Positions 1 through 49,991 of a stretch of 64,000 nucleotides of DNA are shown piece after piece. The notes beneath the pieces were generated by a model, which worked only from the letters and a program-made list of their open reading frames with translations, searched no databases and had not been told where the DNA came from. Numbering within the stretch: the first letter of the stretch is position 1; every line of letters starts with the position of its first letter. The position numbers and the translations under genes were made by a program. Origin of the DNA: Candidatus Eiseniibacteriota bacterium (lineage in GTDB: Bacteria > Eisenbacteria > RBG-16-71-46); contig CAVSAC010000010.1 of NCBI GenBank assembly GCA_963725865.1, positions 451,736-515,735 on the forward strand, given 5' to 3'.

Positions 1-975
1 ACGCGGCGAGCCGACGCGGAAGCCGTACTCGTCCGCCAGCGCCAGCATACGTGCGGTCTGCCGCAGCGACTTCGCGCGGATCGACTCGACGCCGATGCGC
101 GCGACGATCGCGTAGCCGGGCTCGGCCGCCGCGAACGCCACCACCGCCGGGGTGCCGGTCCAGAACCGCCGCGCGCCGTCGTCGCGGCGCGTGGGCCCCG
201 GGTCGAAGTCGAACGGCCGGGCGTGGGCCATCCAGCCGGTGATCGCCGGCTCGAGGCCGGCGGCCACGCGCGGGCTCACGTAGAGGTAGCCCGCGCCGGG
301 TCCGCCGCACAGCCACTTCACCGAGCCGCCGGTCATCAGGTCGATGCCGGCCGCCCGCACGTCCACCGGCAGAGTGCCGACCGACTGGTAGGCGTCGATC
401 AGGGTGCGCGCGCCGCACGCGCGCGCTCGCGCGACGATCGGCGCCAGGTCGAGCACCTGGGCGGTGCGGAACAGCACGTGCGAGATCGCCACCACCGCGG
501 TGCGCTCGTCGATCGCCGCGACCACGTCGGCCTCCTCGATCGCGTGCCCCGTCCGCGCGCGCACCCGCACGACCTCGGCACCGCGACGCACCAGCCCCTC
601 GTACAGGTAGAGCACCGAGGGAAAGTCCTCGTCGGTGCACACCAGCCGGTTGCGCGGCGCGCGAAAGTCGATCGCCGAGAGCGCGAGCGCCTGTGCGTCG
701 GTCACGTTCTGGTGCATCGAGACCGAGCCGGGCTCGGCGTTGACGATGGTGCCGAGCAGATCGCCGACGCGAGTCGGCAGCGCGAACCACTCCTCCTCCC
801 ACGCGCGGATGCCGCGCGACTTCCAGGCCAGCGCGTACCGCCGCAGCGCCTCCTCGACCCCGCGTGGCATCGCGCCCAGCGAGTGCGAGATGAAGTGCAG
901 GGTCGATTCGACGGTCGGGAACTCGGTCCGCCATTCGAGCAGGCGGTCCTCGGTGGCGCGGGGCTCGGGGCTCAT
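1..975 (-). CDS. kynU: Kynureninase (PLP-dependent), N-terminal ~325 aa; 3' end runs off the window
   Basis: Hand translation of the minus strand from ATG at ~975 gives MSPEP...HFISHSLGAMP...VKWLCGGPGAGYLYVSP...ITGWMAH. These motifs match kynureninase (YKYLNGGPG / LSGWFGH regions). No stop occurs before position 1, so it is absent from the ORF track. Confidence 0.7.
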   Translation of the reverse strand, partial: MSPEPRATEDRLLEWRTEFPTVESTLHFISHSLGAMPRGVEEALRRYALAWKSRGIRAWEEEWFALPTRVGDLLGTIVNAEPGSVSMHQNVTDAQALALSAIDFRAPRNRLVCTDEDFPSVLYLYEGLVRRGAEVVRVRARTGHAIEEADVVAAIDERTAVVAISHVLFRTAQVLDLAPIVARARACGARTLIDAYQSVGTLPVDVRAAGIDLMTGGSVKWLCGGPGAGYLYVSPRVAAGLEPAITGWMAHARPFDFDPGPTRRDDGARRFWTGTPAVVAFAAAEPGYAIVARIGVESIRAKSLRQTARMLALADEYGFRVGSPR

Positions 976-1000
976 CGCTCGACCTCCCGATGGGTGCGGC

Positions 1001-1558
1001 TCAGCGGCGCACGCCGCTCGCGGCGCCCTCGAGCACCGCGCGCGCGCCCGCGGCCGCGGTGCGCGCGATGCGGACGTGTTCGAACATCTCCGGGTACACT
1101 AGCTGCGGATGGCGCTGGACGGCCAACCATGCCTCCCACGGCTCCCCGACCAGCACGAACGGGGCGGCGGGCCGCCCGCCCGCGGCGAGCAGGTTCCAGG
1201 TCAGGAACAGCTCGGCGAGCGTGCCCACGCTGCCGGGCAGCACCAGGAAACCGTCGGCGCGCGTGACGATCGTGCGCAGGCGCTCGAACAGATCGGCGGT
1301 GTGCACGCGCTCGCGGACCCAGGCGTTGGCGGGGCCGCGGGCCTCGAACAGCTCGACCGTCACGCCCACCGTATGGCCGCCCGCCTCCGCCGCGCCGCGC
1401 GAGCAGGCCTCCATCACGCCCGAGTAGCCGCCGGTCATCACGTCGGCGCCGCCTGTCGCCAGCGCACGCCCGAGCTCGAAGGCGAGCGTGTACACCGGCT
1501 CGCCCGGCTGGACGGTCGCGCTGCCGTACACCGCGATCAGGGGTCGTCGTGCGGACAT
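1001..1558 (-). CDS. LOG family protein (cytokinin riboside 5'-monophosphate phosphoribohydrolase-like / Rossmann nucleotide-binding, TIGR00730)
   Basis: C-terminal 185 aa of track ORF 1001..2611: MSARRPLIAVYGSA...TGGYSGVMEA...GFLVLPGSVGTLAELF, the LOG-family signature. The upstream Arg/Gly-rich part of the ORF is read-through of non-coding sequence. ATG at 1558. Confidence 0.75.
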   Translation of the reverse strand: MSARRPLIAVYGSATVQPGEPVYTLAFELGRALATGGADVMTGGYSGVMEACSRGAAEAGGHTVGVTVELFEARGPANAWVRERVHTADLFERLRTIVTRADGFLVLPGSVGTLAELFLTWNLLAAGGRPAAPFVLVGEPWEAWLAVQRHPQLVYPEMFEHVRIARTAAAGARAVLEGAASGVRR

Positions 1559-1632
1559 CGGTCCTCCCTGCGAGGGGGTCGAGGGACGCAGTGTGCCACG
1601 GTGCCGGTCGCCGCCGCCAGCCGCGAGTCCGA

Positions 1633-2078
1633 TCAGCGCCGCTCGAACGGCAGCTCGCGCGCGCCGAGCAGGGCCAGCCACGCCGCGACCGCGGTCGCCC
1701 ACACCACCGTGTCGCGCAGGTTCGCCGCCACCGACTGGAGCCCCGCCGCCGCGGCCGGATGCGTGACCGCGCGATAGTCGAGCCCCAGCGCCACCACCGC
1801 CACCACCAACTCGACGCCGACCAGCAGCGGGACTCCCACCGCCAACGCACGCAGCCGTTCGCGCATGCGCGCGCGCCCACTCGCCAGACAGAGGGCCGCG
1901 AACAGCCCGAGCTCGAACGGCATCGCGACCCCGAGACCGGTGACCCGGATCGGCATGCCGAGCAGCTGCAGGACGACGGTCGCCACCGCGCCGAGCGCGC
2001 GCTGGTACGGCAGCGCGACGAACCAGCACAGCACGGAGAGCAGCGTGGCCCAGCCGAGCAGGCGCAGGAACCAGCTCA
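1633..2078 (-). CDS. Hypothetical polytopic membrane protein (~148 aa), divergent from the exosortase-like gene
   Basis: Internal ATG (MSWFLRLLGW...) of track ORF 1633..2163. Several hydrophobic helices and very high GC3 support coding. No family recognised. Confidence 0.4.
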
Positions 2079-2417
2079 TCGCATCCCCCGGGCCGAATCG
2101 GCAGCGCGACGCAAGGGCGCGCGGCGCGCGCCGCCGCGCCGCGGCGTGCGCCCCGGGCGGCACGGCACGCGGGTGCGGTCACGCGCTGCCGAAACCCGCA
2201 GCCCGACTCCCGCCCCCGATCCAGAAAGGCCTCGCGCCTGGCTCCGCGGCCGCGGTAGCGTCGCGGGGCCACGAGTCGGATCCACCCGAGAGGACGAACG
2301 GACATGAGACCTGCGGGCCCCCGAGGTCGCGGACGCGAGCGGGCGGAGGCGCGCGGCGGCGCGGCCGCGCCCAACGCGGGCCGCCGCGGCGGGCCGTCGC
2401 GCGCGCTGGCCGCCTTC

Positions 2418-2903
2418 ATGGTGCGCCTCGTCGTCGGGTTCGTGGCCTGCCTGTGGATCCATGCGCGGACGCCGCAGCTCGATCGGTGGGCGGTCGACGC
2501 CACGGTGGCCTCGATCACCGCCGTGTTCGGGATCTTCCGCGCGCCGCTGGTGCTGATGGGAAACACGATCTCGATCGGAACCACGTCGCTGACCATCGTC
2601 CCCGACTGCACGCCGCTGATGCCGGCGCTGCTGGCAACGATCGCGATCCTCGCCTTCCCGGCGCCCTGGCCGGCCCGCCTCGGCGGCGTGGTGGGCGCCG
2701 CGATCGCGCTCTGGGGCTACAACCTGATCCGCATCGCGGTGCTGTTCGGCGTGATGATCCGCTGGCCCGGCGCATTCGGCTTCGTGCACGTCTACCTCTG
2801 GCAGACCGTCACCGTGGTGGTGGTCGTGGTGCTCTTCATGGCGTGGCTGCGGCTTTGCGAACGGATCCTCCCGGCGGCCGGCCGGCTCCCCCGAGTCGCG
2901 TGA
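2418..2903 (+). CDS. Minimal exosortase/archaeosortase-family membrane protein (alternative start 2304)
   Basis: Track ORF 2304..2903. The hydrophobic core ...LMGNTISIGTTSLTIVPDCTPLMPALL...IALWGYNLIRIAVLFGV...FGFVHVYLW carries the exosortase-like motifs: a Cys after a Gly/Thr-rich helix, a conserved N-x-x-R-I motif, and a downstream His. It is only ~160-200 aa, shorter than canonical EpsH/XrtA. Confidence 0.45.
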   Translation: MVRLVVGFVACLWIHARTPQLDRWAVDATVASITAVFGIFRAPLVLMGNTISIGTTSLTIVPDCTPLMPALLATIAILAFPAPWPARLGGVVGAAIALWGYNLIRIAVLFGVMIRWPGAFGFVHVYLWQTVTVVVVVVLFMAWLRLCERILPAAGRLPRVA

Positions 2904-3042
2904 GATCAAACCTCGCACGAATAGCGGACGATTGTCAGCGGAATGTCCGGTGGGAGCGACTAGGCTCCGCCCTCGTGCCGCGGCAAGGGCGACCATCGAC
3001 CTGGACGCCCCGTCCATCGAGTTCAGCACAGAGGAGGCATGC

Positions 3043-3630
3043 ATGCGCACTCGTCTCGGACTCATCGCGGTCGTCCTCGGGCTCCTCGCGGCCTCGACGG
3101 CGAGCGCGGGACACCATCTCTGGGACTTCACGGAGGCCTTCTCCAACGCGGACGGCTCGGTGCAGTTCGTCGAGCTCTTCACCGCGGCGGCGAGCGAGCA
3201 GGGAGTCGGCCCGTTCACGGTCACCTCGAACAGCAACACGTTCAACTTCGTGACCAACCTCCCCAGCTCGGCGACCGCCAACACGTGGATCCTGATCGCG
3301 ACGTCGAACTTCGCGAGCAAGCCCGGCGCGGTCACGCCCGACTACATCATCCCCGCCAACTTCCTCTCGACCAGCGGCGGAACGCTCAACTACGCGAGCG
3401 GCGTGAAGATCTGGAGCCACGGCGCCCTGCCGACCGATGGTCTGCACTCCCTGCTCCGCAACGGCTCGACGGCCGTCAACTCGCCGACCAACTTCGCCGG
3501 TCAGGCCGGATCGGTGAACCTCGCGGCGTCGGTCCCGATGCTCCCGACCTGGGGCCTGATCCTGCTGGTCGGCGCGATCCTGTTCATGGCGAGCGGGCTG
3601 CTCCGCACGCGCGAGGCTCCCACCGCCTGA
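3043..3630 (+). CDS. Secreted protein with a PEP-CTERM-like C-terminal sorting signal (VPMLP + TM helix + RTR)
   Basis: Signal peptide MRTRLGLIAVVLGLLAASTASA at the internal start of ORF 2932..3630. The C-terminus ...SVPMLPTWGLILLVGAILFMASGLLRTREAPTA is a Pro-containing motif followed by a TM helix and a basic cluster, as in exosortase substrates. It lies immediately downstream of the exosortase-like gene. Confidence 0.55.
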   Translation: MRTRLGLIAVVLGLLAASTASAGHHLWDFTEAFSNADGSVQFVELFTAAASEQGVGPFTVTSNSNTFNFVTNLPSSATANTWILIATSNFASKPGAVTPDYIIPANFLSTSGGTLNYASGVKIWSHGALPTDGLHSLLRNGSTAVNSPTNFAGQAGSVNLAASVPMLPTWGLILLVGAILFMASGLLRTREAPTA

Positions 3631-3706
3631 CGGGCAGCCGGAGCGATTCGATCCCGGGTGGGCACGGGGCGGGCGGAGTTCCTTCGCCCGCCCCTTCCCG
3701 TGGCGC

Positions 3707-4855
3707 TCAGCGCCGCGAGAACAGCGAGAGCGTGAACGTGCGCTCCAGCACCCAGACCACCGCGACCCACGCGATCCCGAGCGATCCGAGCCCCATCACG
3801 ATGCGCGGATACCAACGCCGCCGCGAACCGGCATAGATCAGCGGCATGACGACCGCCACCACCCCGAGCTGGCCCACCTCGACCCCGATGTTGAACGCCG
3901 CGAGCGCCAGCGCGTGCGCGTTGCGAGGCAACGACAGGTTGTTCAACGCGCCGGCGAAACCCAGCCCGTGCACCAGCCCGAAGCCGAACGCCATCACCCA
4001 CGCCCGCCCGGGCAGGAACGGGCGCAGGTTGTTCCACGCCGCCGCGAACACGGACAGCGCGATGCCGACCTCGACCCACTGTTCCCGGATGCGCACGAGC
4101 CCGAAGAACGAGAGGGCGAGCGTCAGGGAGTGCGCCACCGTGAACGCGGTGACGACCTTCAGGACCTCCTGGGTCGACGGCCAGATTCCCGCCCGCGGCG
4201 TCCAGCCGCGTCCCGCGCGCAGCAGTGGCGCGGGCAGCAGCAGGGACGTCAGGAAGAGCATGTGGTCGAGGCCGCTCCAGATGTGCCCGATGCCGTCCCG
4301 GATGAACTCGAGCGTCACCTGCACGAGGTGGAACTGCTTCACCGCGAACGTGGCCGTGCGCTGGTCGGCGTGGAACGCGCCGACGCTGGTGACGCGCGCG
4401 TCCTCGACCGAGAAGTAGGCGCGGTGCGTGGGATCGCGGTCGAACAGCAGGTCGCAGTGCATGCGGAGCCGGGTCGGAGACTTCGCGCAATCGGCGACGA
4501 GGTGGAATCGCACCGAGCTGGTCGCCTCGTTCCACTCCATGGGAGCCGCGGTCAGCTCGAGCGGACATGCCAGGCTGTCGGACTCGATCGTGAGCGAGCG
4601 TGCGAGCAGCGCGCGCAGCTCCGACTCGTGCGGCTGCAGATCGCGCCACCCCACCGTCCCGCCGAGCGACGTGTCGAGCCCGAGCGCGAGCCGCGCGTCG
4701 CGCAGGTGCAGGTCCCAATCGCCTTCCAGGTGCGCCCCTTCGACCCGCAGGCGCAGCTGGCTCATCCCGACCCCGTGCGACGCGGCGGGTCCCGCCGCGC
4801 ACGCCAGACCGACGAGGACCGCGAGTGCCGCCGACCATCCGAGGGGTTTCCGCAT
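3707..4855 (-). CDS. HupE/UreJ family membrane protein (Ni/Co transporter-like) with N-terminal periplasmic domain
   Basis: Track ORF 3707..4870. Motifs GHIWSGLDHMLFL and AFGFGLVHGLGFAGAL plus multiple TM helices. An N-terminal signal peptide follows MRKPLGW. Confidence 0.65.
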   Translation of the reverse strand: MRKPLGWSAALAVLVGLACAAGPAASHGVGMSQLRLRVEGAHLEGDWDLHLRDARLALGLDTSLGGTVGWRDLQPHESELRALLARSLTIESDSLACPLELTAAPMEWNEATSSVRFHLVADCAKSPTRLRMHCDLLFDRDPTHRAYFSVEDARVTSVGAFHADQRTATFAVKQFHLVQVTLEFIRDGIGHIWSGLDHMLFLTSLLLPAPLLRAGRGWTPRAGIWPSTQEVLKVVTAFTVAHSLTLALSFFGLVRIREQWVEVGIALSVFAAAWNNLRPFLPGRAWVMAFGFGLVHGLGFAGALNNLSLPRNAHALALAAFNIGVEVGQLGVVAVVMPLIYAGSRRRWYPRIVMGLGSLGIAWVAVVWVLERTFTLSLFSRR

Positions 4856-5045
4856 GACGCAGCATCGCATGCCCGGGAGCCCGGACGCATCGACATCGGT
4901 CGCCCCACCCGAACGCCGACCCGGAATCCGCCGCGGATTTTCGCATCACTAAACGGCGGGCCGGCCGGCGGGGCGAGGGCTGGCGGAGAGGCCGGCGGCG
5001 GGTGATGCTCGCCCCCACGCCGGCCCACCCCTCACGCGTCCCGAG

Positions 5046-5999
5046 GTGCTCGCCATGCCCGTCCCGTCATCGCGCTGGTCACTCCGGCCCCACATCGCCC
5101 GCATCGCCACCGCGCTCCTGCTGCTCGCGACACCCGTCGGTGCGCTCGCCCAGCCGGCGGTCGGCTTCATGGAGAGTTTTCCCGGCACGCTGACCTCTGG
5201 CTGGGGCGGAGGCGCCGTGGTCTCCAATCCCGGCACCGGCGGCGCGCTCGGGGCAGGCGACGGCTTCCTGCGTATCGCGGTGCCCGGACCGCTGCCCGGG
5301 AATCTCGGCTCGTTCGTCCAGACCCCGGCGTACGTCGGCGACTGGACCGCCGTCGGCATCCACCAGGTCGATCTGTGGCTGAACGACGTCGGCGAGCTGG
5401 ACACGCTCGAGATGCACTTCGTGATCGGGAACGCGGTGGCCGAGAATATCTGGGAGTACAGCCTCGGGTTCGTGCCGCCGGCCGGCCAGTGGGCGCACTT
5501 CGTCGTCGATCTGAGGGACTCGGCGTCGTTCTCGCGGATCGGCACCGGACCCGGCAACTACACCCAGGCCTTGACCCAGGTGGACCGCATCCTCGTGCGC
5601 CACGACTTCGCGCCGTACACGCGGTTCCCCGACACCGTGGTCGGCGACGTCGGGCTCGACGAGCTGCTGCTGAGCGGGGGCACCACCGGCGTGGGCGACG
5701 GCGGGCCGCGCTCGCGGCCGCGCGCGGTCCAACTCGCGCCCCCGATGCCCAACCCGGCGCGCGGTCGCGTGACGCTGCGGATGGAGACGCGCGAGGCCGC
5801 GCCGGTGCGCATCCAGATCGTGGATGCCCTGGGCCGGCTGGTCCGCCACGCCGAGCTGCCGGCCGCGGCACCCGGCGCCCGCACCTGGACGTGGGATGGC
5901 GTGGACGACCGCGGCAGCCGGGCGGCCGCGGGCGTCTATCGCGTCCGCGCCGTGGGACCCGGCGGCGGCACCAGCCGGCCGCTCGTGCTGCTCCGCTAG
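5046..5999 (+). CDS. Secreted protein with C-terminal FlgD-Ig-like / T9SS-type sorting domain
   Basis: Signal peptide (…ALLLLATPVGALA). The C-terminus LAPPMPNPARGRVTLRMETREAAPVRIQIVDALGRLVRH...GVYRVRAVGPG resembles the TIGR04183 / FlgD-Ig CTD. Confidence 0.5.
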   Translation: MLAMPVPSSRWSLRPHIARIATALLLLATPVGALAQPAVGFMESFPGTLTSGWGGGAVVSNPGTGGALGAGDGFLRIAVPGPLPGNLGSFVQTPAYVGDWTAVGIHQVDLWLNDVGELDTLEMHFVIGNAVAENIWEYSLGFVPPAGQWAHFVVDLRDSASFSRIGTGPGNYTQALTQVDRILVRHDFAPYTRFPDTVVGDVGLDELLLSGGTTGVGDGGPRSRPRAVQLAPPMPNPARGRVTLRMETREAAPVRIQIVDALGRLVRHAELPAAAPGARTWTWDGVDDRGSRAAAGVYRVRAVGPGGGTSRPLVLLR

Positions 6000-6075
6000 G
6001 CCGCTGCGCGCGGCCGCCGTGCGCCGACCGCTGCGGCGATCACCCGCGCCGGTGCCGTCGCGGTCCGCGCACGCT

Positions 6076-6456
6076 ATGCTGCGCCCCATGTCGAATCCGG
6101 GGGAGACCGCGGTGCAGGTGCTGCCGGACGCGCGACGCGTCGGCGAGACGCAGGGCGTGCGCTTCCGCGTGACGCTCGAGGGCGTGTCGTACGACGCGTT
6201 CGCGGTCCGCTGGAGCGGGCGGCTTCACGCCTACGTGAATCGCTGCCCCCACCAGGGCAACGCGCTCGACTTCGGCGATGCGGTGTTCTTCGACGAAGCG
6301 TGCGACGCGCTGGTCTGCACCCACCACGGCGCGCGCTTCCATCCGGCGGATGGCCTCTGCGTGGATGGTCCGTGTCGCGGCGGGCGCCTCACGGCGCTGG
6401 CGCTCGAGCTGCGCGACGGCGCGCTCTGGTGCGTGGGCCGCGCCCTGCGTCCCTGA
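6076..6456 (+). CDS. Rieske [2Fe-2S] domain protein
   Basis: CPHQG...17 aa...CTHHGARF fits the Rieske CxH-X15-17-CxxH cluster motif. Internal ATG of track ORF 5824..6456. Confidence 0.65.
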   Translation: MLRPMSNPGETAVQVLPDARRVGETQGVRFRVTLEGVSYDAFAVRWSGRLHAYVNRCPHQGNALDFGDAVFFDEACDALVCTHHGARFHPADGLCVDGPCRGGRLTALALELRDGALWCVGRALRP

Positions 6457-6510
6457 GCGCGAGCGGGCCGCGGACGACCGGCGCCCGCGGCCCGCTCACG
6501 CCCGCGCGGA

Positions 6511-7185
6511 TCAGCGCCGCGCCGGCGCGTTGAGATTCGCGATCACGCCCTTGTCGTTCAGGTCGAGATAGCCGACCAGCCGCGCGCTGCGGCGCACCGC
6601 GTCCGACAACGTGGCCGCCTTGCGGTCGGCCACGATCGCCCGCGCGAGCGCGGGGGTGAGCGCCAGCGGATGGCCGCGCTCGCCCTTGAAGCGCGGCACC
6701 AGGGCGTACGAGAAGCGGGTGCGCTCGCGGGCGTTGCGGTTGGCGGCGAGCGCCTGGAGCAGGACGTTGCCGATCGAGGCGACGGTGGTCGCCGCCACGT
6801 GCGGGTGGTCGACCGGCAGCACCAGCAGCCCCGCGGGCTTGCGCTTGAGCGCGGCGGCAAGCCCCGACTGCACGCTCGACAGCATCCCGCGCTGCCAGCG
6901 CGCGTTGATCACGAACTGGCACTCGAGCCCCGGCGCCCCGTGGCCGTGCGCGTGGGCGAGGTCGGGATGCAGCCGGCCGTGCTCCACCAGCGTCTCGAAC
7001 TCCGCGATGATGGCGCGCTGCACGGCGGTCGCATGGGCCCCCAGCACCACCACCACGTCGTCACACGCGGCCCACAGATGCCGCACGCCGTGGACGGCGA
7101 ACGACGCCGCCCCGGTGCGGACGAGCGCCTTGTCGTGTCCCATCCGGCGCGACGCGCCGGCGGCCAGCAGGACTCCCGCGAGCAT
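6511..7185 (-). CDS. mocA: MobA-like NTP transferase / molybdenum cofactor cytidylyltransferase (MocA family)
   Basis: MLAGVLLAAGASRRMGHDKAL... is the N-terminal signature of MocA/MobA nucleotidyltransferases. It is adjacent to xdhC and the Mo-hydroxylase subunits. Confidence 0.65.
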   Translation of the reverse strand: MLAGVLLAAGASRRMGHDKALVRTGAASFAVHGVRHLWAACDDVVVVLGAHATAVQRAIIAEFETLVEHGRLHPDLAHAHGHGAPGLECQFVINARWQRGMLSSVQSGLAAALKRKPAGLLVLPVDHPHVAATTVASIGNVLLQALAANRNARERTRFSYALVPRFKGERGHPLALTPALARAIVADRKAATLSDAVRRSARLVGYLDLNDKGVIANLNAPARR

Positions 7186-7188
7186 GAT

Positions 7189-8178
7189 CTACCTCCCTGT
7201 CGGGTCCGCGTCCTCGGTCCCCGCCTCCGCGGGGGCCGCATCGTGCATCTCCATGTCGGCCGGCCGCACGCCCGCGCGCGCGGGCGGCACCCAGCCGCGT
7301 TCGATCCCGAGCCCGCGTCGCACCGCGATGATCTGCGCCATCACGCTGACCGCGATCTCCTCGGGACCGTCGGCGCCGATCGCCAGCCCGACCGGCGCGT
7401 GCAGGCGCGCGATTTCCTCGTCGCTGAAGCCCTTCGCCCGCAGCCGCAACGCGAACTTGCGCTGCTTGGCGGTGCTGCCGAGCATGCCGAGGAAGCGCAG
7501 CGGCCGCCGCAGCAGCCCCTGCACCAGGCGCTGGTCGATGGCGTGGTCGTGGGTGGTGATCACGGCGTAGTCCCCGGGCTGCGTGGCGAGCGAGCGCAGG
7601 AAGTCCTCGGGGTCCTGCACCGCCACCCGGGCCGTCGGGAAGCGCTCGGCGGTCGCCCACTCCGGGCGGCCGTCGATCACGGTCACGTCGAAGCCGCAGC
7701 CGGCGGCGATCGCCGCGAGCGGCTTGGCGATGTAGCCGGCGCCGAACACCCACAGCCGCGGCGCCATCTCGACCACTTCGAGGAACACGCTCATCTCGCC
7801 TCCACAGCACATGCCGAGGTCCCGCGTGAGGTGGCGCTCGACGAGCGCGGTGCCGCCGCGCTCGAACAGCTCGCGCGCGGCCGCCAGCACCTCGTGCTCG
7901 ATCGCGCCGCCGCCGATGGTGCCGACGGTCAGGCCGTCGGCGGCGATCAGCATCCGCGCGCCGGCCTTGCGCGGGGTGTAGCCGCGCGCGGCGGTGACGG
8001 TGGCCATCACGAAGCGGCGCTGCTCGGCCCGCCAGCGCGCCAGCGCCTCCCAGACCTCGCCCTCGCGGGTGCGGCGCGGCAGGTCGATGCCGGGCGTGCC
8101 CCCGGTGCCGGTGGGCTCGCCCCCGCAGCGCTGCGCGCGATCGTGCTCGTCGAATTCCTCGGGTTCGCTCGGACTCAT
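7189..8178 (-). CDS. xdhC: XdhC/CoxI family Mo-hydroxylase maturation protein
   Basis: MSPSEPEEF...GYTPRKAGARMLI...FGAGYIAKPLAAIAAGCGFDVTVIDGRPE shows the XdhC N- and C-terminal Rossmann domains. Its ATG overlaps the coxM stop (ATGA). Confidence 0.75.
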   Translation of the reverse strand: MSPSEPEEFDEHDRAQRCGGEPTGTGGTPGIDLPRRTREGEVWEALARWRAEQRRFVMATVTAARGYTPRKAGARMLIAADGLTVGTIGGGAIEHEVLAAARELFERGGTALVERHLTRDLGMCCGGEMSVFLEVVEMAPRLWVFGAGYIAKPLAAIAAGCGFDVTVIDGRPEWATAERFPTARVAVQDPEDFLRSLATQPGDYAVITTHDHAIDQRLVQGLLRRPLRFLGMLGSTAKQRKFALRLRAKGFSDEEIARLHAPVGLAIGADGPEEIAVSVMAQIIAVRRGLGIERGWVPPARAGVRPADMEMHDAAPAEAGTEDADPTGR

Positions 8179-48022: not shown

Positions 48023-48805
48023 TCACGCCGGCACGCTGCGCCGCAGGCGCAGCATCATGAGCACGCCGAACAGCGCGAGCGCGACGCTGGTGAGCTGACT
48101 CTCGGTGAACGGCACCCCGCCGATCGTCGCGAGCACGGCGCCGGGCTCGTAGGCGCGCGTCAGGTCGATCGGGATGCGCACCAGGGAGAACGCCAGCACG
48201 AAGCCCCAGAACAGCGTGCCGGGGGGCGCCAGCCGCTTGCGCAGCGCCCAGGCCAGCGCGAACAGCCCCAGTCCGGCGGCGGCGTTGTAGAGCTGCGACG
48301 GATGCACGGGCACCGTCCCGTAGTCGAGCCCCGCGAAGGAGTCGGCCGGGAACTCGACGCCCCACGGCAGCCGGGTGGGGCGCCCGTAGCAGCAACCGTT
48401 GAGGAAGCATCCGACGCGCCCGAACATGGTGCCCAGGGCCAGCGACGGGGTGAGCGCGTCGGCCACGGTCCACATCGGCTGGTGGAGCCGCCGCGCGACC
48501 AGCAGGCCGGCCACCGTGCCGCCCACGATGCCGCCATAGAGCGTGAGCCCGCCCTGCCACAGTGCCAGCACGCTGCCCCACTGGCGGCGGAAGTCCTCGA
48601 GGTGCTCCATCACGTAAAGCAGCCGCGCCCCCAGCACCGAGCACACGAGCGTGGCCAGGATGATGGTCACCAGCGCGTCCTCGTCGATCCGCAGCCGGCG
48701 CGCCTCGCGCAGCGCCAGCCAGGTGCCGAACAGGAACGCGATCGCGAGCATCAGGCCGTAGGAGCGGATGTGAAGCGCCCCCCAGTGGAGGATTTCGGGA
48801 TGCAC
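48023..48805 (-). CDS. lgt: Prolipoprotein diacylglyceryl transferase
   Basis: ...RSYGLMLAIAFLFG...GARLLYV...MFGRVGCFLNGCCYGRPT (Lgt signature G-x-x-GCF-x-GCC-x-G). Probable GTG start (VHPEILHW) 4 nt after the rodA stop; alternative ATG at 48853. Confidence 0.75.
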   Translation of the reverse strand: MHPEILHWGALHIRSYGLMLAIAFLFGTWLALREARRLRIDEDALVTIILATLVCSVLGARLLYVMEHLEDFRRQWGSVLALWQGGLTLYGGIVGGTVAGLLVARRLHQPMWTVADALTPSLALGTMFGRVGCFLNGCCYGRPTRLPWGVEFPADSFAGLDYGTVPVHPSQLYNAAAGLGLFALAWALRKRLAPPGTLFWGFVLAFSLVRIPIDLTRAYEPGAVLATIGGVPFTESQLTSVALALFGVLMMLRLRRSVPA

Positions 48806-48809
48806 GGAA

Positions 48810-49991
48810 TCAGAACTCCCGGCGCCGCAGCGCCACGTTCTGGAGCAGGCCAAGCTGGACGCCGTTCACGATCAGCGCGGTCCCGCCGTACGACAGCAAC
48901 GGCAGCGGCAGCCCGGTCACCGGCGCCCAGCCGATGGTCATGAGCATGTTCACCATCACCTGGTAGAACAGGGCGGACACCAAGCCCACCGCCATCAGGC
49001 TGGCGAACGCACCGCGTGCGATCACCGCGAGGCGGAACCCACGCAGGATGACGACCGCGTACAGTAGCACCACCGTCAACGAGCCCAGCAGCCCCAGCTC
49101 CTCGCCCACCACCGAGAAGATGAAGTCGGTGTGACGCATGGGCAGGAAGGCGAGCGCCTTCTGAGTGCCCTTCAGGTAGCCCTTCCCCAGCACGCCGCCG
49201 GAGCCGATCGCGATCCGCGACTGGATGATCTGATACCCGGACCCGTACGGATCGTTGTCCGGATTCAGAAACGTCTCGATGCGGCGCTTCTGATATTCCT
49301 CGAGATGGTTCCAGATGCGCGGCATCGAGGCACCCACCGCCACGTTCATGACCAGCACCGCGATCAGCAGCGGCAGCCGCGGGCGCGCGAACGCCAGCAG
49401 CGCCACGAACAGCCCGCCGAACCACCACAGCGAGCCGGTGATGAAGAACAGCACCACGTTGAACACCGGCGACAGCCCCAGCAGCAGGCTGCCGAGCGGC
49501 ATGCCCGCCCAGAAATACATCGCCACGAGGATCACCGGGAACGACAGCGAGGTGCCGAGGTCGGGCTCCTTGGCGACCAGCGCGAACGGGATCAGCACCA
49601 GGATCAGCGGCGGCACCCAGTGGCCGACCTTGCGCAGGTCGAGCTTGGGATCGTCGAAGCGGCGCGCGAGCAGCACGACGGTGGCGATCTTCGCCAGCTC
49701 GGAAGGCTGGAACTTGATCGGGCCCAGGTCGAGCCAGCGCTTGGCACCCATCGCGCTGTGACCGATCACCAGCACCGCCACGAGCAGCAGCAGCGCGACT
49801 CCGTAGAACGGCCACGCCAGCGAGTCGTACACGCGCAGCGGGATGGCGGCCGCCACCCACGCCGCGACGAGCGCCACGCCGGCCCACAGCAGCTGGCGCG
49901 TCCACAGGCCCTCGTGCGCCCCCGGCACCGAGGTGGCGCTGAACACGATCGCGAGGCCGATGAACACCAGGCCGAGCGCCGCGAGCGCCAT
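48810..49991 (-). CDS. rodA: SEDS-family peptidoglycan glycosyltransferase RodA
   Basis: FtsW/RodA motifs (…LGPIKFQPSELAKI…, …YGGTALIVN…). Follows mrdA-mreCD. Internal ATG (MALAALGL) of track ORF 48810..50228. Confidence 0.8.
   Translation of the reverse strand: MALAALGLVFIGLAIVFSATSVPGAHEGLWTRQLLWAGVALVAAWVAAAIPLRVYDSLAWPFYGVALLLLVAVLVIGHSAMGAKRWLDLGPIKFQPSELAKIATVVLLARRFDDPKLDLRKVGHWVPPLILVLIPFALVAKEPDLGTSLSFPVILVAMYFWAGMPLGSLLLGLSPVFNVVLFFITGSLWWFGGLFVALLAFARPRLPLLIAVLVMNVAVGASMPRIWNHLEEYQKRRIETFLNPDNDPYGSGYQIIQSRIAIGSGGVLGKGYLKGTQKALAFLPMRHTDFIFSVVGEELGLLGSLTVVLLYAVVILRGFRLAVIARGAFASLMAVGLVSALFYQVMVNMLMTIGWAPVTGLPLPLLSYGGTALIVNGVQLGLLQNVALRRREF

Follow-up and report, generated by a model that had tools for sequence, protein, structure and literature searches.

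Does a very small exosortase-like gene, paired with a gene for a secreted protein that ends in an atypical sorting tail, define a sorting system of its own, or does the pair belong to a kind that is already catalogued? The question is raised by a locus near the start of a 64,000-nucleotide stretch of DNA (herein the window) on contig CAVSAC010000010.1 (assembly GCA_963725865.1) of a Candidatus Eiseniibacteriota bacterium. The locus encodes a mini-exosortase, a 148-residue polytopic membrane protein (herein the partner), a 195-residue secreted protein with a C-terminal sorting-type tail (herein the cargo) and, convergent with the cargo gene, a HupE_UreJ_2 membrane protein. An earlier note, made from the letters of the window, had proposed a possibly undescribed exosortase subtype with a non-canonical sorting signal. 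We assign the locus, with a probability of roughly 0.75, to a divergent relative of the exosortase H (XrtH)/IPTL-CTERM sorting system that is specific to the phylum Candidatus Eisenbacteria; what is new here is a divergent branch of a known kind of sorting system, not a new sorting signal. To our knowledge, exosortase systems beyond XrtA and ArtA have received almost no experimental or comparative description.

An XrtH-like mini-exosortase

The exosortase gene lies on the + strand at 2304..2903 (199 residues) or, if translation begins at the second ATG, at 2418..2903 (161 residues). Both forms pass the TIGR04178 exosortase/archaeosortase signature (37.2 bits for the 199-residue form and 37.9 bits for the 161-residue form; cut-off 23). 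Three candidate catalytic residues, Cys102 in IVPDCTPLMP (nucleotides 2607-2609), Arg143 in YNLIRI (2730-2732) and His162 in FVHVYLWQT (2787-2789), do not vary across 19 aligned sequences. Judged by these profile matches and retained residues, the membrane protein is a member of the exosortase/archaeosortase family. The family assignment made in the earlier note thus holds: an exosortase hidden Markov model (HMM) does match, and the Cys, Arg and His are all kept.

Among the subtype models, TIGR04177 (XrtH) ranks first for the window protein at 60.8-62.9 bits, followed by XrtX, ArtB and XrtM, all far under their own cut-offs. XrtH is likewise the top subtype in each of the 10 relatives tested (52-72 bits, none above the cut-off of 86). 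TIGR02602 (EpsH) gave no match to the window exosortase, and a sequence search of the PDB with the exosortase profile returned no match either. The protein has about five hydrophobic segments. The XrtH, ArtB, XrtM and XrtX models span 150-168 positions, so an exosortase of ∼160 residues, "minimal" as it may look, is normal for its size class; the N-terminal helices of EpsH/XrtA are indeed absent, as had been remarked, yet their absence is ordinary for proteins of this length.

A word-indexed protein search yielded 29 relatives of the exosortase. A genome scan located 17 loci, 14 of them titled Candidatus Eisenbacteria, two "uncultured bacterium" and one Candidatus Saccharimonadaceae; to all appearance the clade is restricted to Candidatus Eisenbacteria.

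A membrane partner that accompanies the exosortase

The partner gene (1633..2079, − strand) is transcribed divergently from the exosortase gene and encodes a protein with four or five hydrophobic segments. A homolog lies directly beside the exosortase gene in 17 of 17 genome loci, and also in loci L018, L022, L023 and L026. In the usual arrangement, found in 16 of the 17, both genes are on one strand and the partner directly follows the exosortase; L002 and the window instead have the partner divergently upstream. Neighbor-joining trees of the two proteins are congruent, showing the same clades. With adjacency in every genome locus and congruent trees, the partner is a conserved companion of the exosortase and part of the same unit, which the earlier note had put forward as a possibility.

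An exhaustive phmmer search gave a partner family of 98 cluster representatives. Two of its members appear to be natural fusions: P0245 (328 residues), a putative fusion of exosortase and partner, and P0214 (552 residues), a putative fusion of partner and HupE_UreJ_2 that is found as the same single open reading frame (ORF) in L074 (382..2535). The only recurrent NCBIfam match in the family is to NF041730, "exosortase H-associated membrane protein"; it is weak (best E 0.0017) and is seen in 2 of 18 and 12 of 98 family members.

Comparison of profiles suggests what the partner may be. Aligned with hhalign to the exosortase profile, an 18-sequence partner alignment gives a probability of 78% and an E value of 1.8e-5; deepening it to 79 sequences improves the match to 91.9% and E 7.1e-7, the two profiles running collinearly through about 140 columns, with a shared PxWRxRxxG-like segment in alignment. 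Controls scored far worse (three reversed profiles, E ≥ 0.12; 30 column shuffles, E ≥ 0.08; 30 shuffles of 20-column blocks, E ≥ 2.5e-4), the true match being at least 350-fold better than the best of these 60 shuffles and three reversed controls. The IVPDC segment of the exosortase, its Arg and its His have no counterpart in the partner in the same alignment. We consider it probable, with moderate confidence, that the partner is a catalytically dead exosortase paralog. The competing explanation, to which we give an appreciable though minority chance, is that the partner is an unrelated accessory membrane protein, for instance a chaperone or a component of the acceptor pathway, and that the profile similarity is a matter of composition bias. 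In its favor are the modest identity (19-21%) behind those hhalign probabilities and the fact that the window partner has no direct HMM match to any exosortase model; moreover, a block shuffle did reach E 2.5e-4, so composition contributes. What argues for paralogy is the length and collinearity of the alignment, its margin over all controls, its improvement with depth and the segment that the two families share.

An IPTL-CTERM-like sorting tail

The cargo gene (3043..3630, + strand) starts 139 bp after the exosortase gene ends and encodes a signal peptide, a predicted β-sandwich domain and a C-terminal sorting-type tail (3532..3630). The tail reads S-VPMLPTWG-LILLVGAILFMASGLL-RTR-EAPTA: VPMLPTWG occupies nucleotides 3532-3555, a transmembrane (TM) helix extends to about 3603, and RTR (3604-3612) precedes a few last residues and the stop codon. 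The tripartite order of motif, TM helix and basic cluster is as the earlier note had described it. That note had also stated that the motif is not IPTL, and here our results differ. When the last 44 residues alone are scanned against NCBIfam, the window tail matches two models only, midcut-by-XrtH (NF033207; 22.5 bits) and IPTL-CTERM (TIGR04174; 16.6 bits, E 0.0072), and VPMLPTWG falls in register with IPTLxxWG.

The same holds across the family. Among 111 ortholog tails, 109 match midcut-by-XrtH (best E 2.1e-7) and 69 match IPTL-CTERM (E up to 10; best E 2.3e-8); scaled from 16.6 bits at E 0.0072, the best of the latter would correspond to ∼35 bits, above the cut-off. PEP_CTERM is matched by 3 of the 111, at E 2.3 or worse, matches to the VPEID and PGF models are rare or absent, and no VPXXXP model is among the families listed as matches of these tails. 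With the number of tails that carry the commonest residue given after the letter, the motif columns read V88-P110-[A/M]-[L/V]-[P/Q]-[T/S]-W106-G97; P-x4-W-G is near-invariant, as are a G and an SG within the helix, after which comes R-R-R. Position 5 is Pro in only 38 of the 111, so that the conserved form is VPxLxxWG and not VPxxP. One ortholog has IPTLETWG, and the UniRef name of one cargo ortholog begins "IPTL-CTERM so...". On the strength of these profile and column comparisons, the tail is IPTL-CTERM-like and represents no new class of signal.

Neither the window nor ∼230 kb of related loci (the first 27 loci) yielded a further ORF with an IPTL-like tail. One candidate substrate in the window, an ORF at 48023..48865 (− strand) with a TM-plus-basic C terminus, was rejected, being Lgt (prolipoprotein diacylglyceryl transferase; 200.7 bits).

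Homologs that share 40-50% identity with the cargo domain and come from other metagenomes carry other tails. Of six such tails tested, five pass the PEP-CTERM model (18.7-23.5 bits; cut-off 16), and there are also homologs with IPTL-like or unclassified tails. Exchange of tails between sorting systems is a classic mark of a sorting module, and PEP-CTERM tails on distant homologs thus point to a C terminus that acts as an exchangeable sorting module. Homologs with PEP-CTERM tails, and others with long C-terminal extensions, were seen among metagenome loci L064, L065, L067, L073, L075, L082 and L102. In L077, L079 and L080 a different exosortase gene lies ∼1 kb from the cargo-domain homolog.

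Two conserved gene pairs

The gene convergent with that of the cargo (3707..4855, − strand) encodes a 382-residue membrane protein that passes the HupE_UreJ_2 model (PF13795, 152.4 bits; gathering cut-off 24.5). Each of the eight long contexts (the window, L018, L020, L022, L023, L024, L025 and L026) has a cargo gene convergent with a HupE_UreJ_2 gene, as do 28 of the 30 metagenome loci with enough downstream sequence. The conserved pairs are thus two, exosortase with partner and cargo with HupE_UreJ_2.

These two pairs adjoin one another in the window, L018, L022, L023 and L026, as well as in 3 of 34 metagenome loci; they do not in L020, L024 and L025. Three separate lineages of the tree show such linkage (the window with L023; L018 with L026; L022), and so do metagenome loci L049 and L074, both outside the tree. 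Locus L018 has its exosortase, partner and HupE_UreJ_2 genes in line, their ends overlapping.

Weighing the assignment

Several results weigh against assigning the locus to an XrtH/IPTL-type system. The window exosortase, at 60.8-62.9 bits, misses the XrtH cut-off of 86; the tail lies below the thresholds of both models that it matches (IPTL-CTERM, 16.6 versus 20.5 bits; midcut-by-XrtH, 22.5 versus 45 bits); and NF041730 (XrtH_assoc) gave no match to the window partner at E up to 10. PF09721, and Pfam generally, did not match the window exosortase. The exosortase and substrate genes are neighbors at this locus, as the earlier note described, yet their adjacency was rejected as a conserved feature, since the cargo gene is beside the exosortase gene in none of the 17 genome loci and, among 34 metagenome loci, in only 3. 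Assembly GCA_035494735.1 contains two paralogous exosortase-partner pairs of different clades, one linked to cargo and HupE_UreJ_2 genes (L026) and one alone (L013), which makes it ambiguous which pair serves the cargo. Cleavage of the cargo, finally, rests on analogy with ArtA and XrtA, and the literature searched contained no experiment on any XrtH system. Because all three subtype-specific models score below their curated cut-offs, we file the enzyme as XrtH-like and not as XrtH proper.

The same shortfall, in enzyme, tail and partner alike, is what most favors a distinct, undescribed exosortase subtype with a VPxxP-TM-Arg signal of its own, outside the IPTL class. So do the apparent restriction of the clade to Candidatus Eisenbacteria and what appears to be a single dedicated cargo family; XrtH systems have several substrates per genome. 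We nonetheless regard a separate subtype as unlikely. The XrtH-system models are the best match for all three components, XrtH is the top subtype in every relative tested, and the conserved motif is VPxLxxWG, with Pro at position 5 in a minority of tails, IPTLETWG in one ortholog and E values against IPTL_CTERM as low as 2.3e-8. The proposal of an undescribed subtype with a new signal accordingly gives way to that of a divergent XrtH/IPTL-type system.

It is very unlikely that the tail is a mere membrane anchor, left unprocessed beside an exosortase that acts on other proteins and adjoins it by coincidence: the cargo gene does usually lie apart from the exosortase gene, and the exosortase-partner pair often sits in a housekeeping neighborhood (by eye, chorismate synthase and DAHP synthase), but a plain anchor needs no near-invariant P-x4-W-G ahead of its helix, the tail matches sorting-signal models and has PEP-CTERM in its place in homologs, linkage to the exosortase recurs in three lineages with in-line gene orders and putative partner-HupE_UreJ_2 fusions, and the loci examined offered no alternative substrate with a sorting tail.

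The cargo domain and a possible link to metals

The cargo belongs to a large and well-conserved family of Eisenbacteria. It has at least 563 homologs, of which the best 120 share 60-79% identity and are nearly all about 195 residues long. Its signal peptide (residues 1-22) ends ASA|GHH, which gives a predicted mature N terminus of G-H-H. The domain between signal peptide and tail found no match in Pfam (E up to 10), NCBIfam or the sequences of the PDB. An AlphaFold2 model (mean predicted local distance difference test score, pLDDT, 83.8) consists mostly of β-strands, and its top Foldseek matches in the PDB are lamin-B1 tail domains, all weak (E 0.03, TM-score 0.28-0.45). Identity as a lamin tail domain (PF00932) was therefore rejected, there being no Pfam match and only a weak match of fold; the likeness is a resemblance only. 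In L026/L027, the gene directly upstream of the cargo ortholog (2334..5642, − strand) encodes a 1102-residue protein with Pfam LTD and PLDc_2 domains and a faint Por_Secre_tail match.

The third residue of the predicted mature cargo is His in 119 of 119 orthologs and in 44 of 45 distant homologs (in the window G23-H24-H25, nucleotides 3109..3117). An N terminus of the form X-X-His is an amino-terminal copper- and nickel-binding (ATCUN)-type Cu(II)/Ni(II) site. The HupE_UreJ_2 protein likewise has His first (HGVG) after its predicted signal peptide. The fixed pairing with a HupE/UreJ-type gene and the His at mature position 3 lead us to a speculative reading in which the cargo takes part in metal handling. 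A stronger version would make all four genes a single module for extracytoplasmic metal acquisition, in which the exosortase and its dead paralog bring the cargo to the cell surface and the cargo hands metal to the HupE_UreJ_2 permease; we consider it improbable.

A proposed mechanism

Cleavage of the substrate is established for ArtA and XrtA systems. If the XrtH-like locus works by likeness to ArtA/PGF-CTERM and XrtA/PEP-CTERM, the exosortase would cleave the cargo along the following lines. The cargo would be exported by Sec and remain anchored through its C-terminal helix, its basic RTR cluster facing the cell interior. The mini-exosortase, through Cys102, Arg143 and His162, would recognize both VPxLxxWG, on the outer side of the membrane, and the conserved G/SG side of the helix, and would cut near VPxLxxWG via a thioacyl intermediate; the mature cargo would then be released or be transferred to some acceptor in the envelope. 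The partner, as an obligate component, would probably form a heterodimer with the enzyme or serve as a subunit for substrate docking. The cargo, a predicted β-sandwich protein of ∼140 residues, would work with the adjacent HupE_UreJ_2 membrane protein. What the sequences show is the family to which the enzyme belongs, its conserved candidate catalytic residues, the likeness of the tails and their swapping, the linkage of the genes and the putative fusions; that the cargo is cut, where it is cut, what accepts it, whether the proteins form a complex and what the cargo does are all inferred.

The genes and their surroundings

The three ORFs of partner, exosortase and cargo exist with the motifs quoted in the earlier note (IVPDCTPLMP, YNLIRI and a downstream His; SVPMLP, helix and RTR). 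Its divergent ORF is likewise present, although its end was placed one base short, at 2078; the correct end is 2079. The GC content of the window is 72%, against which a third-position GC of 0.86-0.93 in the partner, exosortase and cargo frames indicates that the three behave as real genes. Genes called independently on a public contig with an identical exosortase include the same three, followed there by HupE_UreJ_2, FlgD_ig, Rieske and NTP_transf_3 genes, and each of the exosortase, partner and cargo has many homologs.

Between the divergent partner and exosortase genes lies an intergenic region at 2080..2303, reaching 2417 if the exosortase begins at its second ATG. A promoter scan found no sigma-70-like promoter in it, and any function is suggested by its position only. 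The gap between the convergent cargo and HupE_UreJ_2 genes holds a GC hairpin with a perfect 13-bp stem (3666..3694), which may be a bidirectional terminator. Against this stand the terminator scan, which found no T tract, and the z-score of the region (−0.86), which is not significant relative to shuffles. Rfam gave no match in 1..8000.

Upstream of the partner, the gene at 1001..1558 (− strand) encodes a LOG/SLOG-family protein (PF18306, 70 bits; PF03641, 59.8 bits). Beyond the HupE_UreJ_2 gene, a secreted protein is encoded at 5046..5999 (+ strand); its C-terminal FlgD_ig domain (45.7 bits) and sub-threshold Por_Secre_tail match (19.9 bits) suggest that it carries a C-terminal sorting domain of the T9SS (type IX secretion) type. 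Similar tails occur in L007, L008, L011, L012, L014 and L018.

Other genes recur around the exosortase-partner pair in L001-L017. Some 500-4000 bp downstream of the pair, many Eisenbacteria have a conserved set that by eye comprises a ∼180-residue protein, chorismate synthase and a protein resembling 3-deoxy-D-arabino-heptulosonate 7-phosphate (DAHP) synthase; upstream are large membrane proteins, by eye GT39/ArnT-like. Near the cargo and HupE_UreJ_2 genes of L024 (3457..7051) lie genes for a repressor of the Penicillinase_R family, which includes CopY, for a member of Peptidase_M56 and for a heavy-metal P-type ATPase that has YHS and HMBD domains; this is a single locus and maybe a coincidence.

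Significance

The locus appears to be a simple system of one enzyme and one cargo, XrtH-like and in a little-studied phylum. The literature searched yielded no paper on XrtH, beyond one preprint in which the name exosortase H occurs and one unrelated paper that mentions IPTL-CTERM, and none that pairs Eisenbacteria with an exosortase. Curated cut-offs leave the clade labeled merely "exosortase/archaeosortase family protein" and "hypothetical protein". Three leads follow: what is catalogued as the XrtH-associated membrane protein could be an exosortase paralog that has lost its activity; the cargo domain may be a recurrent exosortase substrate that switches between IPTL-like and PEP-CTERM tails; and the fixed tie between the cargo and a HupE/UreJ-type membrane protein hints at metal handling. 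The probable pseudo-enzyme partner, the single dedicated cargo and the HupE_UreJ_2 link could be of interest to specialists. Were the reading as a metal module true, an XrtH-type system would for the first time have a function assigned to it, and an exosortase would for the first time be known to work with a pseudo-enzyme partner.

Comparison with known systems

Precedent for a metal-handling exosortase cargo exists in ZepA of Anabaena, a PEP-CTERM exoprotein that handles zinc (PMC10957091). ZepA and the cargo share a signal peptide, a sorting tail and histidines at the mature N terminus, a likeness that is one of analogy only. The H-X2-9-H-F/Y-H pocket of ZepA is, by reading, not in this cargo, which has instead an X-X-His N terminus and a HupE_UreJ_2 neighbor. 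The HupE/UreJ family is treated as Ni/Co transporters in comparative-genomics literature (PMC2667541).

The XrtA/EpsH system with its PEP-CTERM substrates (TIGR02602, PF09721 and TIGR02595) has in common with the present locus the enzyme superfamily and the logic of a tripartite signal; it differs in the TM segments of the enzyme, eight to the about five here, and in the PEP motif, which is missing from this tail. ArtB and VPXXXP-CTERM (TIGR04144) offer a further comparison. ArtB is a mini-sortase of similar size and ranks second or third among the subtype matches, and the tail here also starts with VP. The window enzyme, however, scores 42.7-44.7 bits against an ArtB cut-off of 150, and WG is not part of VPXXXP.

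The closest likeness is to the XrtH system (TIGR04177, TIGR04174, NF041730 and NF033207). Common to both are a mini-exosortase of ∼160 residues with the Cys, Arg and His, a small polytopic partner encoded next to it, and a substrate tail in which (I/V)PxLxxWG precedes a TM helix and basic residues. All three components here score under the curated cut-offs; a plasmid tblastn search for annotated XrtH loci returned no match. What sets the present clade apart is its apparent confinement to Candidatus Eisenbacteria and its one cargo family seen, which is tied to a HupE_UreJ_2 gene.

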